Source: Candidatus Latescibacterota bacterium
GTDB taxonomy: Bacteria > Latescibacterota > UBA2968
NCBI GenBank assembly: GCA_965208125.1
Contig: OZ242320.1
Span: 160,001 to 224,000, forward strand
Direction of reading: 5' to 3'
DNA length: 64,000 bases
The stretch's first letter is position 1. The number at the start of each line of letters is the position of its first letter. The position numbers and the translations under genes are program-made. This document shows positions 602-15,231 of the stretch, piece after piece. A model generated the notes under the pieces. It was not told where the DNA came from and ran no database searches. It was given only the letters and a program-made list of their open reading frames with translations.

Positions 602-3487
<2,886 letters not shown>

Positions 3488-10915: not shown

Positions 10916-11485
10916 ATGTTCAACTGGCTCAAAAAACTATTTGCCCCTCCTGTCGAACGCCTGCCGCAACTCGAAATGTTTCGCGATCACCTCAACAACC
11001 TGCCCGAAATTCAGCACATTACCGGCTATGCCACACGCACCTATCGTTCGGGTGACGAAGCCGCCTGGTGTCGCATCATGGAAGGCAATGTGGGCAGCAA
11101 CTGGACAACGGAGAAATGCCGAGCGCAATTGATCAACGATTCCCGCTTCCAGGCAGAGAACCTCTTTTTCATCACCCACAACGACGACCCCATAGCCAGC
11201 GCATGTGCCTGGAAAACACCCGGTCAATCGCCGGAAACGGGTGAAGTTCACATGGTCGCCGCGCACACAGACCACCGAGGCAAAGGACTCGGGCATTTGC
11301 TCAACGCCCTCGTCCTCCATCGCTTAAAAGACCTGGGCTATCAAAAAGCACATCTCAAAACCGATGACTGGCGCCTACCGGCCATCAAAACCTACCTCGA
11401 CGCGGGCTTTCAGCCCCTCAACACCCACGAAAGCCACCCCGAACGATGGGAAGCCATCTACGCCCAGCTCAAAATAAAAAGATAG
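10916..11485 (+). CDS. GNAT family N-acetyltransferase
   Basis: Motif A HRGKGLG; AIKTYLDAGF. Confidence 0.85.
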   Translation: MFNWLKKLFAPPVERLPQLEMFRDHLNNLPEIQHITGYATRTYRSGDEAAWCRIMEGNVGSNWTTEKCRAQLINDSRFQAENLFFITHNDDPIASACAWKTPGQSPETGEVHMVAAHTDHRGKGLGHLLNALVLHRLKDLGYQKAHLKTDDWRLPAIKTYLDAGFQPLNTHESHPERWEAIYAQLKIKR

Positions 11486-11552
11486 CAGTCAGCGATCAGC
11501 GGTCAGCAGTCAGCAAAACAAGCGATTAGCTGATGGCTGAAAGCTGATAGCT
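11484..11552. repeat. Heptamer tandem repeats in inverted arrangement between convergent genes
   Basis: Four AGCRRTC units followed by three GCTGA(T/A)R units, complementary to them. Confidence 0.7.
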
Positions 11553-11553
11553 C

Positions 11554-12300
11554 TTACCCCATCAACGCATTATACCCCATCCCCATCACCTCCTTGACGT
11601 GCTCCAGCGTGCGCTGTCCTTCAATACGCGCTCTCGAACCACCCAAATTCAAAATATCGCGCACCAGATCGGGCTGTTCTTCAAAACCCTTGCGGCGTAC
11701 CCGAAACGACGTCATAATTTTACACTGACCATCCGTACCCTTCAAGCGCGTGCCATAAACGCCATCGGGAATGGGAAACACCTCGCCGTAAATCCGATTA
11801 AATCGCGCAGCCACTTCCTGCGCCAGTTCAATATGGGGTCTTTGATCTGGCCCCACCGGCACATATCGCGGACGAAAAAGCAAAATATCCGCCGCCTGAG
11901 ACACCGGATATCCCACAAACCCATAAGGCACCCGGTTCCCCAACCCCATCTTACCCATCTCCTCCTTAACTGTCGGATTCCGCAACAAACGCGGCAACGT
12001 CACCAAATTGGAAAAAATCATGGTTAACTCTGCCAGTTGCGGCACCTGTGATTGCAAAAAACAAACGCTTTTTTTGGGATCAAATCCCGCCGCCAGATAA
12101 TCCAGCACCATTTCTCTGACGTGATGCTCCAGATCCTCTGTCCGATCCCGATGCGTCGTCAGCGCCTGATAATCGGCAATCATAAAAAAACACTGAAACT
12201 CATCCTGCATCTCAAACCGATTCTTCAATGACCCGACATAATGTCCCAAATACATTTTACCCGTCGGACGATCACCTGTTAAAACAATTGTGCGACTCAT
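11554..12300 (-). CDS. trpS: Tryptophanyl-tRNA synthetase homologue with in-frame internal deletion (possible pseudogene)
   Basis: TGDRPTG, YPVSQAADIL, VPVGPDQRPHIE; only 248 aa; HIGH reads YLGH; KMSKS absent. Confidence 0.85.
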   Translation of the reverse strand: MSRTIVLTGDRPTGKMYLGHYVGSLKNRFEMQDEFQCFFMIADYQALTTHRDRTEDLEHHVREMVLDYLAAGFDPKKSVCFLQSQVPQLAELTMIFSNLVTLPRLLRNPTVKEEMGKMGLGNRVPYGFVGYPVSQAADILLFRPRYVPVGPDQRPHIELAQEVAARFNRIYGEVFPIPDGVYGTRLKGTDGQCKIMTSFRVRRKGFEEQPDLVRDILNLGGSRARIEGQRTLEHVKEVMGMGYNALMG

Positions 12301-12339
12301 CTCTGTTCCTTTCTTGAGCGATTAAAATCCATAGTTTCC

Positions 12340-12487
12340 AAAAAAAACGCGCCACCTTCCGGTAGCGCGCGGTGCAAATAAATAAAAATTGCCAGATATC
12401 CGGTGGTGGACATACATCTCCCATCGCGCCTGTCCACCACCAGCGTCCGCCAATATTAAACAGCTCTGTCATCGCACTCAAAAACAT
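12340..12487 (-). promoter_or_regulatory. Trp attenuator 2 (WWW leader, 11-bp hairpin, intrinsic terminator)
   Basis: TGG TGG TGG at 12434-12442 within GGTGGTGGACA/TGTCCACCACC stem; terminator GCGCGCTACC-GGAA-GGTGGCGCGT+T-run at 12340-12370. Confidence 0.75.
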
Positions 12488-12501
12488 CGCATAATATCCA
12501 T

Positions 12502-12533
12502 AAAAAAAACCGCCGTCAAAAGCCGACGGCGGT
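12502..12533 (-). terminator. Attenuator 1 terminator
   Basis: ACCGCCGTC-GGCTTTT-GACGGCGGT followed by T-run. Confidence 0.85.
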
Positions 12534-12564
12534 CAATTCAGAATTTTCAAATAAATACAATCCG

Positions 12565-12675
12565 TCAGCAAACCCACACAACGGCACGCCACCAGCCACG
12601 GACGGTTTCAGACACACGGGGAGCCAGCACCCTATCGGGCGTCGCATCAGTCAAAATGTGATCGTGCATAGTCAT
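12565..12675 (-). CDS. trpL: Trp leader peptide (36 aa)
   Basis: GGGAG RBS; MTMHDHILTDATPDRVLAPRVSETVRGWWRAVVWVC; GWWR as in E. coli TrpL; followed by antiterminator/terminator. Confidence 0.8.
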   Translation of the reverse strand: MTMHDHILTDATPDRVLAPRVSETVRGWWRAVVWVC

Positions 12676-12700
12676 AACAAACTCCCGTGAAATATCGCCG

Positions 12701-12748
12701 AAAAAATAACGACTTCAACAACTCGTGTCAAGCCGTTTGATTTTCTTT
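12701..12748. repeat. Left copy of 48-bp imperfect direct repeat; contains TTGACA-17-TATTTT promoter (- strand)
   Basis: Matches 16202-16249 with 6 mismatches by eye. Confidence 0.8.
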
Positions 12749-14219
12749 AGCTCACGAACCGGAACGAATAGAGCTTCACTGACCGCATCACGACGCGAAG
12801 CCGCAGCGGTCCTCGATCCGTGGGGATCCGACGGCCGGCCCCCTGCCACGACACGCCTGTCTTGATTGCATTGGCGACAATCGTCTCGCACGTCTTCAGC
12901 GTGTAGCCTTCCAGGGGACGCCCCTCCTCGTCCTGCAGCTCGACCAGCAGCCAGCCGCTCCCGCCACAATCTACATTCAGCTCGAGCGCCTGACCGTCGA
13001 ATGCCAGCGGCGGAGTCACAAACTCTCCGCCAGAAAGAGACGCATCCGCCGAGACAAAACCGTCCCGCCTCAGGATCGCCCGGAACAGCCCGGTATTCCA
13101 ACCGTCGCGCACCTCATCATTGTGCCGACTTCCCCGGCCCGAATAATAGATCCACATCTCGGTCTCGGTAAGCACGGGCCAGACATTGGCCATCACCATA
13201 CCACCCGATGGCCCTCCATCCAGCCCCCGGCGGATGAACGGCTCCCGGTCTCCCTGATGCGACCATATGATCCCGTCACGGCTCGTGAGGAGCCGGACGT
13301 CCATCGTGGCTGGAAAATCGGACGCTTCCCAGTGGTAGTAAGCAGCGGGCATCATGAAATACGCATCATCTGCCTCGGGATGCTTGTAAACTGCGTTCGT
13401 GTAGTAATCGACCTGCGGCCTGTCCATCGACCGGGGAGGCAGAGGAGCTTCCAGGTCCAGCGCATCCCCTTCCAGGACGACCAGCGTGGGCTGTGACCAG
13501 GTCTTAAAGTCGGGCGACGTGATCCGACCAACGGATCGGTACCGCTTTCCGAGCTTCATTTCCGCCGCCTCGTCCCGTCGCTGGGTCTCGTGCACCCGCG
13601 TATAGCCTACGTAGAGGTCCAGGCTGTCATCCCAGAAGAAAACATTCTGAGTATCGCACATCTGGTCGGGCGGATTCGGCTGGCCCTCATCATACGTCCA
13701 ATGGATCCCGTCGGGTGAATGCATGGCCCAAAGCCCTGGCAGAACACCGGCCTCAATCTCATCATCCCTGGGATAGTACTTCGACCAGAGCCGGTAGCGC
13801 GAATCAGCGGGCGCGCGTTCGTCTATATAGACCGTCGCGCCCTGCATACTCTGACGCTCATCCAGCGGGGCGACGATGTTGTTGGCGGTGCTACCCTGGA
13901 ACGTGACGAGGTGCATCTCCGGCTTCTGCCAGGAGACCCCGTCTTCGGACTCCGCATAGCAGAGACGAACCGCCCCTTCCTGCGGACCTCCCGATTTCAT
14001 CTGTGCGCCGTACCAGAGCCGGAAGTGCCGCTCCCCTTCCCGGATCACCGTGTTGTACGCCCCAATCCCGAGCTTCTCCCACGGCTTGTCCGCCCGGAGC
14101 ACTGGCTCGGGGGACTGCAAAGGCGGATTCATACGGAGATTGACACCAGAGACTCGATCAAAGAAGCGCGCGTCAATGAAAAGCTGTTTCCGGCTCCCAA
14201 CCTGGACTGCAGCGGCCAT
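12747..14219 (-). CDS. Putative beta-propeller glycoside-hydrolase-like protein
   Basis: KQLFID start, Asp-box-like SEDGVSW/SPDGIHW/SRDGIIW, C-terminal LRRDGFVS...LYSFRF. Confidence 0.65.
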   Translation of the reverse strand: MAAAVQVGSRKQLFIDARFFDRVSGVNLRMNPPLQSPEPVLRADKPWEKLGIGAYNTVIREGERHFRLWYGAQMKSGGPQEGAVRLCYAESEDGVSWQKPEMHLVTFQGSTANNIVAPLDERQSMQGATVYIDERAPADSRYRLWSKYYPRDDEIEAGVLPGLWAMHSPDGIHWTYDEGQPNPPDQMCDTQNVFFWDDSLDLYVGYTRVHETQRRDEAAEMKLGKRYRSVGRITSPDFKTWSQPTLVVLEGDALDLEAPLPPRSMDRPQVDYYTNAVYKHPEADDAYFMMPAAYYHWEASDFPATMDVRLLTSRDGIIWSHQGDREPFIRRGLDGGPSGGMVMANVWPVLTETEMWIYYSGRGSRHNDEVRDGWNTGLFRAILRRDGFVSADASLSGGEFVTPPLAFDGQALELNVDCGGSGWLLVELQDEEGRPLEGYTLKTCETIVANAIKTGVSWQGAGRRIPTDRGPLRLRVVMRSVKLYSFRFVS

Positions 14220-14283
14220 GAGATACCCCTTCCTGTTGTCGATGCCAACTACAAAAAGTTTACCTGATCCATCCTGTACATCC

Positions 14284-15231
14284 CTACACACACGCAAGAG
14301 CGGCCAACAGGGCTTTGATATACCCGACTGAGTAGGCGAGCGCGTGGGTATTGCCAGCAGGCCCATCCCCTTCAAGCGTCGGATAGTGATCGGGATTCAG
14401 ACAGCCGTCGTAACCCACCCGCTTCAACTCGCGCAAGATCTTGAACATGTTCATATCCCCATCGTCGAGCAGGACCTCTTCGAACGCACCGGCGGTTGCA
14501 AAGCTCGCACGCACGTTTCGAAAGTGAACCTCGAAGAGACGTCCCTTTCGCCCGTAGTTGTGAATCTCGTCCAGGACGAGTGGAAGTCCTCCGGCCTCCG
14601 CGCGTGTCCCACAACAGTAGAGGTAACCGACACACGGGTTCGGAAAGGCATCGATCACCCGGTGGAATCCCAGCCCGCCGAAGAGCGCATCCTGCGTCGG
14701 CGGGTCGGAGGGATGCATCATCAGTCTGACGCCTGTGGCTTCCGCGACGGGCACGAGCCGTTCGTAAGCCGCACAGACGCGCCCCCACCGCTGCTCTCGC
14801 ACTGCTATGGCCGGTGGCTCATCCCCCTCTGCGAGTGACAGACTGTCCCCTCGAGCCAGGTAACCACCGCGGTGCGATGCCCGATAGTGTCCAATCATCC
14901 AGGGATCCGTGGAATAGTCGAAGTGCACCCGTCCAAGAGGATAGCCTGCTTCGCCAAGGACCCGGACGGACTCACACGCGATGTCGAGTTCCTCCTCAGC
15001 ACCATCCTCTTCGTCCATGAACCGCTTCGATAGACCGGGCAAACTGATGCGATTCACCTGCAGACCCCAAGAATGAACCCGTTTCTTCATTTTTAGTGCC
15101 TCGTCCAGATCGAAGACGCCACGGTCATCGGTCGGCAATGGCAGGGCATCGACGCAATCGACGCCCAACTGGGTCAGCTGGCGCAACGTCGCATCGGACG
15201 GGTCTTGACACCAGGCAGCTACTTTGATCAT
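14284..15231 (-). CDS. Mannonate dehydratase (UxuA)-like protein
   Basis: MHPSDPP, VHFRNV, FEEVLLDDGDMNM, PDHYP, AYSVGYIKAL. Confidence 0.8.
   Translation of the reverse strand: MIKVAAWCQDPSDATLRQLTQLGVDCVDALPLPTDDRGVFDLDEALKMKKRVHSWGLQVNRISLPGLSKRFMDEEDGAEEELDIACESVRVLGEAGYPLGRVHFDYSTDPWMIGHYRASHRGGYLARGDSLSLAEGDEPPAIAVREQRWGRVCAAYERLVPVAEATGVRLMMHPSDPPTQDALFGGLGFHRVIDAFPNPCVGYLYCCGTRAEAGGLPLVLDEIHNYGRKGRLFEVHFRNVRASFATAGAFEEVLLDDGDMNMFKILRELKRVGYDGCLNPDHYPTLEGDGPAGNTHALAYSVGYIKALLAALACV

Follow-up and report, generated by a model that had tools for sequence, protein, structure and literature searches.

Two tryptophan-codon leader units in series ahead of a tryptophanyl-tRNA synthetase paralogue in a Latescibacterota genome

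Layout of the locus and its first unit

Attenuation by leader peptides is described in textbooks and is known chiefly from Proteobacteria and Actinobacteria. We analyzed a 64,000-nt stretch of DNA (the window) of a Candidatus Latescibacterota bacterium, in which two dissimilar leader/terminator units with adjacent tryptophan (Trp) codons lie in series ahead of trpS2, a gene for a paralogue of tryptophanyl-tRNA synthetase (TrpRS). The genome, coded G000, is a single contig of 5.75 Mb. All elements of the tandem are on the minus strand, in the order promoter P1, leader 1, terminator 1, leader 2, a 13-bp hairpin, terminator 2, and the trpS-like gene. An earlier note on this DNA had named the promoter, both Trp leaders and both terminators; every one of them is there, and its proposal of two unlike units in series stands, both being conserved in relatives. 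The alignment of upstream regions that it called for recovered conserved WW/WWW leaders, and terminators 1 and 2 with changes on both sides of their stems. In what follows, codes beginning with G denote genomes and those beginning with L denote loci; g1 is the genus of the window, within family f1, and f2 is the sister family.

P1 (12703..12731) is a sigma-70-like site with TTGACA at 12731-12726, a 17-nt spacer, and TATTTT at 12708-12703. It matches the consensus at 10 of 12 positions and is the sole promoter-like match in the relatives L004 and L007. At the other end of the array lies trpS2 (11554..12300, with its ATG at 12300), which encodes a 248-amino-acid (aa) TrpRS-II-like paralogue with a deletion junction near 11717/11716. 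The earlier note had spoken of a single trpS, and here it was wrong: trpS2 is a second gene of this kind, and a 355-aa housekeeping trpS is located elsewhere in the genome.

The first open reading frame (ORF) behind P1 is leader 1 (12565..12675), which encodes the 36-aa peptide MTMHDHILTDATPDRVLAPRVSETVRGWWRAVVWVC, with the pattern GWWR..VW, and is preceded at a distance of 6 nt from its ATG by the Shine-Dalgarno sequence GGGAG (12686-12682). Two adjacent Trp codons, TGGTGG, lie at 12594-12589 and a third TGG at 12576-12574. The stop codon TGA (12567-12565) falls within GCTGACGG (12562..12569), the putative antiterminator strand, which pairs with CCGTCGGC at 12529-12522. Terminator 1 (12502..12534) follows as a 12-pair hairpin at 12534-12508 and a run of eight T residues. 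These features are well kept among relatives. WW or WWW is present in leader 1 of 24 out of 24 distinct f1 loci, with the stop followed by ACGG, and both TGGTGG and the stop-adjacent A.CGG are invariant columns of the f1 unit 1 alignment. The leader 1 peptides are 32 to 42 aa long and conserved within g1. A covariance model of unit 1 matched 25 of 151 Latescibacterota genomes, among them 23 of the 29 in f1, including all 19 other g1 genomes and G000, which has one copy.

The antiterminator duplex that the earlier note had put forward, GCUGACGG with CCGUCGGC of the terminator 5' arm, has a calculated energy of -15.6 kcal/mol; in the g1 loci tested, no other duplex of the post-Trp part of the leader with the terminator arm is better. 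Equivalents occur at the same place elsewhere: the best duplex falls on or just before the stop codon in 20 of 20 sequences tested, f4 and f2 included, at -11 to -27 kcal/mol, values that shuffled sequences equalled in 1 to 45 of 200 trials. In g4 and g6 the equivalent is AACCG-UA-ACGG with CCGUCGGUU, and the outer pair changes from G-C in g1 to A-U, one compensatory change by reading of the sequences. Terminator 1 itself shows change on both sides in at least one sequence for 3 of its 12 pairs (RNAalifold fold of 24 sequences), with at most 2 of the 24 breaking any given pair.

The Trp codons lie nine codons ahead of the stop, so that a ribosome stalled on them would leave the antiterminator strand free and a terminating ribosome would cover it. 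As judged from its sequence, unit 1 is an attenuator of the classical trp type. Its stop codon falls within GCUGACGG and, as in E. coli trpL, is placed so that the terminating ribosome would mask the antiterminator. A ribosome at the leader stop would thus sit on GCUGACGG and let terminator 1 form; one stalled at UGG UGG about nine codons upstream would let GCUGACGG pair with the terminator 5' arm, and transcription would continue.

The second unit: conservation, translation and structure

Leader 2 begins with an ATG at 12487, about 20 nt after the T-run of terminator 1. The conserved part of its ORF (12397..12487) reads MFLSAMTELFNIGGRWWWTGAMGDVCPPPDI, and the peptide starts with MFLSAMTELFNIGGRWWWTGAMGDVCPPPDIW and has the pattern RWWW...CPPPD. 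Its Trp codons, TGGTGGTGG, lie at 12442-12434, and three proline (Pro) codons, CCA CCA CCG, at 12409-12401. Both sets of codons take part in one hairpin (12400..12443), in which CTGGTGGTGGACA (12443-12431; segment 1, the Trp-codon arm) pairs with TGTCCACCACCGG (12412-12400; segment 2). As RNA this is CUGGUGGUGGACA with UGUCCACCACCGG, a perfect stem of 13 bp at -24.1 kcal/mol, longer than the 11 bp that had been counted. Segment 2 can also form a small hairpin of its own, hairpin X (12397..12412), with UGUCC and GGAUA around the loop ACCACC. Terminator 2 (12340..12370) consists of GCGCGCUACC, a GGAA loop, and GGUGGCGCG(U); its hairpin spans 12370-12347 and is followed by eight T residues. As the earlier note had remarked, leader 2 has no stop until 12272, inside trpS2.

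That note had also wondered whether the second leader is decaying. It is not: a covariance model of unit 2 matched 40 of the 151 genomes of the phylum (26 of 29 in f1, 10 of 19 in f2, 1 of 2 in f4), with one copy per genome, and 35 of the 40 matches score at least 42 bits. Weak matches in G033 and G041 (28.5 bits) contain no Trp codons and were rejected as unit 2. In every locus read, unit 2 adjoins a trpS2 paralogue, and the simplest reading is that it belongs to trpS2. A scan for the exact pattern in one genome per species, covering 185,579 species, gave 50 matches. Twenty-two of these have trpS2 downstream, and all carry Latescibacterota titles except one titled Gemmatimonas. The 28 others come from unrelated organisms, where they are in coding DNA and have no T-run. 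Unit 2 is a separate module, dissimilar in sequence from unit 1. Its model does weakly match unit 1 of L007 (the equivalent of 12757-12868; 19.4 bits, E = 5e-4), which reflects the common UGGUGG run and terminator layout and is not demonstrated homology.

Several features indicate that leader 2 is translated. For these and the structural tests below we used 31 sequences aligned to the unit 2 model (alignment A9). All 31 contain at least two Trp codons at the site (WWW, WW, WGW or WWWW), and the start codon, the W codons and PPP are conserved among relatives. The peptide follows the pattern R-W-W-W, 7 or 8 codons, (C/R)-P-P-P-D, with a conserved Arg two codons after the Asp. The spacing from WWW to PPP is thus 7 to 8 codons and always in frame, and the hairpin loop varies in length by whole codons. 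A strong Shine-Dalgarno sequence (GAGGA or GAGGTG) is found in L012 to L016, L029 and L030; that of the window is weak. Substitutions in CCACCACC are of four kinds, three of which keep proline. Two of the proline-keeping kinds (one in L029, the other in L194 and L212) break a base pair, and in the remaining one (CCA to CCG; L018, L085 and the g7 loci) a wobble pair is retained. In L016 a substitution of the fourth kind turns proline into Gln. We take leader 2 to be translated because of the conserved ATG, the Shine-Dalgarno sequence, the whole-codon loop changes, and the proline-keeping substitutions. Past ...DIWRS the frame differs among relatives, with a stop 8 to 270 nt beyond the start of the T-run, and the ORF of L006 and L007 shares the frame of trpS2.

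The structure of the unit is constrained as well. The unit 2 segment folds with z = -4.6, and none of 200 shuffles folds as well. The nine-pair core of the 1:2 hairpin is formed in 94% of the alignment cells. In the terminated fold as a whole, 91.3% of cells are paired, with a covariation score of 0.232 versus 0.144 for shuffles, and none of 500 shuffles reaches that score. Terminator 2 is paired in 98.4% of cells, with 5 of its 10 pairs changing on both sides, and has an energy of -19.5 kcal/mol. Hairpin X covaries too (0.242 versus 0.165 for shuffles; 0 of 500 shuffles reach the score), and one of its pairs is U-A in 15 sequences and C-G in 13. Hairpin X can form only when segment 1 is unavailable. 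This requirement, together with the covariation, implies that the state in which a ribosome masks segment 1 appears to be functional.

A conserved hairpin with ACCACC in its loop could also be taken for a binding site. TrpRS might read the hairpin X loop as a mimic of the tRNA-Trp anticodon loop, or unit 2 might bind tRNA-Trp in the manner of a T-box; from family to family the sequence of unit 2 varies unusually little, and the GGUGGCGCG region loosely resembles the T-box motif. We consider binding by a protein or tRNA very improbable. An Rfam scan of 11400-13000 at E up to 10 gave only sub-threshold, terminator-driven matches (Spot_42, anti-hemB, GcvB and Trp_leader), and no T-box leader (RF00230) is among the eight matches listed. 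The ATG, the Shine-Dalgarno sequence, the whole-codon loop changes and the proline-keeping substitutions speak for translation, and the RNA is unchanged where trpS2 has lost its anticodon-binding region.

Two proposed attenuators in series

We propose that the locus contains two ribosome-mediated Trp attenuators in series on one transcript from P1, both of which must be read through before trpS2 is transcribed; we put the probability of this reading at roughly 60%. The observations that carry it are the anatomy of the locus, its conservation, covariation of the terminators, coding constraints on both leaders, and purifying selection on trpS2. A single leader transcript from P1 would carry both switches. 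In unit 2, UGG UGG UGG occupies one arm of the 13-bp hairpin and Pro-Pro-Pro, in the same frame, the other. A ribosome stalled for want of charged tRNA-Trp would free segment 2, and segment 2 and the spacer behind it would pair with the 5' arm of terminator 2, its loop and GGUGG, so that no termination occurs. With ample charged tRNA-Trp, the ribosome would move onto segment 2, where it would probably be slowed at PPP in place of the missing stop, and terminator 2 would form. Since both attenuators must be passed, output would approximate the product of two stalling probabilities, giving a steeper, two-tier response to Trp-tRNA shortage. The AND-like output that the earlier note had envisaged is plausible on these grounds.

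A single transcript across both units and trpS2 is suggested by the promoters and is compatible with RNA data. Besides P1, the window has a P2-like site (12491..12519; TTGACG, a 17-nt spacer, TATTAT) that overlaps the 3' arm of terminator 1. We rejected P2 as the true start of unit 2: the site was found in neither of the two relatives scanned, L004 and L007. The -10 box of P2 stops 3 nt short of the leader 2 ATG, so a transcript from P2 would have no ribosome-binding site for leader 2. The site is probably fortuitous. Four RNA libraries, from runs labelled sponge metagenome, coral metagenome and a coded organism, yielded assembled contigs of relatives about 90 to 95% identical to the window. 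In one run a contig covering 12441-12687 bridges terminator 1, and another, covering 12152-12382, bridges terminator 2 into trpS2. The bridging run has no cover above 12710, and the contig end at 12687 is a weak hint of a start at P1. The flat depth in run X17 may be DNA; we drew neither expression levels nor 3' ends from these libraries, and uncovered parts prove nothing. The contigs fit a start at P1 with some read-through.

The same evidence bears on the idea that unit 1 is mainly a stand-alone gene for a trans-acting small RNA or peptide, as described for rnTrpL in the available text of PMC6614838, with unit 2 and trpS2 having a start of their own. In favor of it, a promoter and a 12-pair terminator belong to unit 1 itself, leader 1 encodes a rather long peptide that is conserved within g1, the window has the P2-like site, and inserts of 40 to 230 nt ahead of leader 2 in some relatives could hold promoters. 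We think this unlikely. P2 is absent from both scanned relatives and would start transcription at or after the leader 2 ATG, and an RNA-library contig spans terminator 1 into leader 2. In the f1 loci read, what follows unit 1 is always trpS2 or an operon that has unit 2 and trpS2 at its end, and the geometry of the unit 1 stop codon and antiterminator is that of a cis attenuator.

Terminator 2 covaries, but the antiterminator of unit 2 is only putative. The earlier note had pointed to CCACC with GGTGG of the terminator. The complementarity is real and kept in 96% of cells, but this pairing alone amounts to -11.1 versus -19.5 kcal/mol for terminator 2. With CCGG:CCGG added (the 2:4' pairing), 92.8% of cells are complementary. 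A longer pairing is a better candidate by modelled energies: duplexes of segment 2 and the spacer with the whole terminator region reach -16 to -38 kcal/mol, versus -11 to -26 kcal/mol for the hairpin, and the spacer pairs with the terminator 5' arm in them. The GCGC in the loop of the 1:2 hairpin was tried as an antiterminator and rejected; it is absent in L014 and L015 and does not track the changed terminator in L018.

A number of results weigh against our proposal. The related genomes behind the comparative counts are not mutually independent, and alignment A9 was fitted to the model structure. Taken whole, the unit 1 segment does not fold better than its shuffles (z = -0.57), an uninformative outcome, and the Rfam model of the Trp leader (RF00513) matches 12504-12600 at only 20 bits against a gathering score of 41, with E = 0.5, and so gives no membership by sequence. 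RNA contigs cannot show transcript ends, and carry-over of DNA into the libraries is possible. The 2:4' pairing shows no covariation, with 214 of 500 shuffles reaching the observed percentage of paired cells; its columns, like those of the competing 1:3 pairing, are invariant or changed on one side only, and the covariation tests are therefore evidence neither way. With segment 1 masked, the minimum-energy fold of the window still forms terminator 2, as do those of 27 of the 31 sequences. In folds of the nascent RNA, most g1 sequences behave in reverse, and in the window the sequestration of the 5' arm is 0.38 under Trp stall and 0.75 with the ribosome on the Pro codons. Finally, leader 2 has no stop before the terminator in any f1 locus read, so a closely following ribosome could block the terminator.

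These last points raise the possibility that unit 2 works in the opposite direction. In the E. coli pyrBI attenuator, as the discussion in the available text of PMC3641672 describes it, a close-following ribosome prevents the terminator hairpin from forming. By analogy, a ribosome that has passed the Trp codons of leader 2 and is positioned on segment 2 or past it would block terminator 2 by its bulk, or would free segment 1 (CUGGUGGU) to pair with the terminator 5' arm (GCUACCGG), and stalling at WWW would let the terminator form. The leader 2 ORF runs through the terminator in f1, as the leader ORF does in the description of pyrBI seen there, and ends at the base or loop of the terminator in f2: its stop is just ahead of the terminator in G048 and in the terminator loop in G044. 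In G034, also of f2, the stop forms an ATGA overlap with the next start. The 1:3 pairing, of the Trp-codon arm with the terminator 5' arm, is complementary in 88.8% of cells and is the predicted fold when the P site is on the first Pro codon and the 3' arm does not yet exist. The g1 folds just cited, with most 5' arms more sequestered under the Pro mask, and the terminator retained by the Trp-stalled minimum-energy folds fit this direction as well.

We nonetheless judge the reversed direction improbable. Behind a classical unit 1, or behind the attenuated trpS of f2, it would leave almost no expression of trpS2, yet trpS2 is under purifying selection. The 1:3 pairing lacks covariation (356 of 500 shuffles reach the observed percentage of paired cells), has an energy of only -7.6 kcal/mol, and, like the 2:4' pairing, comes automatically with the shared GGUGG/CCACC cores, since segments 1 and 4 share GGUGG. 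Full-length equilibrium folds keep terminator 2 in 30 of 31 free sequences, in 27 of 31 with a ribosome stalled on Trp, and in 31 of 31 with a ribosome on Pro; the terminator is thus lost in 4 of 31 under the Trp-stall mask versus none under the Pro mask. In these minimum-energy folds with ribosome masks the terminator wins nearly every state, and equilibrium folding cannot decide the logic. In nascent-RNA folds, with the 3' arm not yet made, the 5' arm is sequestered more under Trp stall than in the Pro position in 17 of 31 sequences, and in 14 of 14 outside g1, g4, g6 and L032. If the reversed direction did apply, trpS2 would need a Trp-tRNA level neither too low (for unit 2) nor too high (for unit 1), and the locus would be a band-pass filter.

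We therefore favor the classical direction for unit 2, starvation leading to read-through. Its context and the distant lineages speak for this, and with reverse logic trpS2 would go unexpressed behind a classical unit 1. For the window itself, folding is ambiguous. The stop-codon masking seen in trp-type attenuators is absent from unit 2 of the f1 loci, and the in-frame PPP on segment 2 may take the place of the stop. The available text of PMC5021804 reports that polyproline stalling uncouples ribosomes from transcription and favors intrinsic termination, with a link to elongation factor P, and by analogy a pause at PPP could act in this way in unit 2. A more far-reaching proposal, which we consider rather doubtful, is that unit 2 is a novel design. 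Its hairpin arms, (UGG)3 and the in-frame CCA CCA CCG, would be two slow sites about one ribosome footprint apart, and the freed arm, with its covarying ACCACC-loop hairpin and the spacer, would capture the terminator. The pair of units would then be a two-stage ultrasensitive starvation switch for a TrpRS-derived starvation effector or sensor with a new function.

How the tandem arose may be read from its distribution, for which we read the upstream regions of 24 f1 loci. Every one of the 21 g1 genomes has the direct tandem, as do L017 (g5), L014 (g6), and L018 and L085 (f4), and both leader ORFs are intact there. A further gene separates the two units in L015 and L016, and L028 has unit 2 without unit 1. 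The f2 genomes G048, G044, G037 and G034, and also G052, show a different order: first a Trp leader and its terminator, then the main trpS, then unit 2 and a trpS2-like gene. The terminators of unit 1 and of the f2 attenuator are alike (CCGC[CU]GUCGGC and CCCUGCCGGCC), which suggests by sequence that unit 1 is homologous to the f2 trpS attenuator. Given the f2 order, the tandem probably arose by loss of an intervening gene, unit 1 being the ordinary trpS attenuator of the lineage.

Such a history invites the view that the tandem is a by-product, with each unit functional, no special AND function, and the housekeeping trpS lost from the locus or moved away. The orders in f2 and G052, the similar terminators, the intervening gene in L015 and L016, the solitary unit 2 of L028, and the leaderless main trpS of G000 all agree with it. 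We regard this as possible rather than probable. It is compatible with serial attenuation, for a history of this kind leaves room for present function, and the direct tandem is kept with both leader ORFs intact across 21 g1 genomes, g5, g6 and f4. Moreover, the unit 1 model matched the f2 attenuators in 0 of 19 genomes, which leaves the homology undemonstrated.

In several relatives the two units are separated by an insert between terminator 1 and leader 2, of about 70 nt in L007, L010, L019 and L022 and about 230 nt in L012. These inserts contain ...CGCGGAACCCTTCCCA.CCACCC..., and a similar string follows terminator 2 in L015. The insert may be a small repeat or mobile element.

The regulated gene, related systems and surroundings

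G000 contains three loci with the Pfam domain PF00579: tyrS, the 355-aa trpS at C1:4400941, and trpS2 of the window. The housekeeping trpS lies about 20 nt after its upstream gene and has no leader; trpS2 is 48% identical to it over the first 200 residues. The trpS2 product matches PF00579 at profile positions 5-199 of 292 only, with the HLGHY-type region present. Relatives 332 aa long are up to 95-96% identical to it, and alignment shows that the window protein lacks 84 in-frame residues. This 84-codon deletion takes out KMGKS (the KMSKS signature) and a C-x20-C-x6-C-x2-C region with four cysteines of Fe-S type. The window protein is thus without the full set of class I TrpRS features (HIGH and KMSKS in a whole catalytic domain), and from its sequence we file it as a TrpRS-like paralogue, not an active synthetase. 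Among solved structures, the full-length 332-aa relatives are closest to Deinococcus radiodurans TrpRS II (PDB 2a4m and 1yi8; E = 4e-89) and the [4Fe-4S] TrpRS of Thermotoga maritima (PDB 2g36; E = 1e-80). Their cysteine motif resembles the C-x22-C-x6-C-x2-C motif of the latter, as given in the available text of PMC2954223. Unlike these enzymes, the window protein has neither the KMSKS loop nor the cysteine region, and the f2 and g2 forms are still more degenerate.

Both trpS genes are present in 21 of 21 g1 genomes, G000 included; trpS2 is long in 10 and shortened in 11. The deletion junction AAGAT|TATGACG is common to nine g1 loci, and L029, L030, P0029 and P0042 have other deletion boundaries. 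Over the first 183 codons, the ratio of nonsynonymous to synonymous substitution rates (dN/dS) is 0.074 when deleted forms are compared with one another, 0.085 for full-length forms, and 0.080 for deleted against full-length forms. With a dN/dS of about 0.07, the shortened trpS2 is maintained and not decaying. Behind unit 2 in f2 and g2 are versions of 220 to 308 aa with degenerate HIGH, GxDQ and KMSKS (L190, L191, L193 and L194 in genus g7 of f2; L213 and L216 in genus g2); a C-terminal ARIEGQRTLE helix is conserved in the f2/g2 trpS2-like ORFs, and the trpS2-like copy of G026 has internal stops. An AlphaFold2 model of the 248-aa protein, made from an 11-sequence alignment, had a mean predicted local distance difference test score of 45 and was not used. 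Loss of KMSKS through independent in-frame deletions in several lineages, under strong constraint, points on sequence grounds to a non-canonical role under tryptophan stress. The regulated gene, a KMSKS-less TrpRS paralogue under strong constraint, may be more surprising than the tandem.

The units resemble known attenuators in several respects. Like those of E. coli trpL and the Streptomyces trpS genes, each has a translated leader in which Trp codons are adjacent, an intrinsic terminator ahead of the gene, and a putative alternative pairing overlapping the terminator 5' arm. In contrast to these systems, here there are two units in series, the leaders, at 36 aa and more than 30 aa, are far longer, the host belongs to a candidate phylum, and unit 2 has no stop ahead of its terminator and pairs its Trp codons with in-frame Pro codons. 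Tandem T-boxes are known on trp and thrZ leaders, where the same uncharged tRNA is sensed twice. Tandem riboswitches and T-boxes likewise place two complete terminator-based switches serially on one leader, sharpening or combining responses; they sense a ligand or tRNA by RNA, whereas here the sensor would be the translating ribosome and the units are unrelated in sequence. The target in Streptomyces, a second tryptophanyl-tRNA synthetase gene, is also alike: the accessible part of PMC1262725 describes classical attenuators predicted upstream of auxiliary trpS genes.

The closest precedent for the arrangement is Salmonella mgtCBR. According to the available text of PMC3641672, it has tandem attenuators with the leader ORFs mgtM and mgtP, which sense ATP and Pro-tRNA and act independently and additively; its stem-loops are, per the authors, unlike intrinsic terminators. 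There, as is proposed here, two short leader ORFs on one RNA each control elongation into the same coding region; in mgtCBR one of them does so by codon-specific (Pro) stalling. As far as that text describes mgtCBR, the difference is that in the window both leaders are Trp-coded and each is followed by a canonical hairpin and T-run, for which multiplicative logic is expected. The same text cites the tandem S-adenosylmethionine and B12 riboswitches of Bacillus clausii metE. It also has pyrBI sensing UTP through RNA polymerase pausing, whereas unit 2 has Trp codons and the Trp/Pro codon hairpin. The earlier note knew of no described tandem leader-peptide example; mgtCBR is one in print, but for serial leader-peptide attenuators responding to the same amino acid, and for a Trp/Pro codon hairpin, we found no description in the literature searched, which left subscription journals largely outside.

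The locus would thus offer a natural example of two successive attenuators that are read by ribosomes and serve the same amino acid; if the product logic is true, it is a simple natural route to a steep or two-threshold response. Unit 2 is compact enough to serve as a model in which to ask whether a pause at polyproline can do the work of a stop codon in attenuation. The device is conserved in an uncultured candidate phylum, and parts of the stretch are found in runs labelled sponge metagenomes.

Within G000, we scanned the whole genome for short ORFs that contain TGGTGG and have a hairpin and T-run behind them. Of the 16 matches, only units 1 and 2 are leader-like by reading; the others are 3' ends of genes or tRNAs. 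The trpE gene of G000 is preceded by a different aromatic leader, ...SYFWYFWRRFDGRYYYYRR..., with a terminator, which by its sequence looks like an aromatic-amino-acid attenuator and indicates that leader-peptide attenuation is in regular use in this genome. This leader ORF, MNVLTSYFWYFWRRFDGRYYYYRRPSKSVVCPAF, with its hairpin and T-run, lies outside the window, at about 418.3-418.5 kb of G000:C1 (L208, about 1900-2150, minus strand), and tyrS is located between trpE and trpA in the same region. Beyond the phylum's genomes, of the 80 loci kept from a scan of metagenome proteins only 2 are close relatives (L084 and L085); the rest are trpS genes that belong to other phyla and are about 45-50% identical. 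In six of these, on contigs of GC-rich organisms (L118, L121, L125, L130, L134 and L137), there is an unrelated single leader ending in ...WWWPP(N/S) and a stop, followed by a hairpin. Control of trpS by Trp leaders may exceed its documented range.

Directly upstream of P1 is a 542-aa ORF (12747-14375, minus strand) without a Pfam match, whose 3' end is kept in most g1 relatives. Just past trpS2, at 11484-11552, are two 7-nt tandem repeat arrays, AGCAGTC in 4.6 copies and TAGCTGA in 3.7 copies. The stretch 11479-11520 has very high summed depth in the four RNA libraries, with many contigs running on into unlike sequence, and on both counts we take it to be a dispersed repeat.

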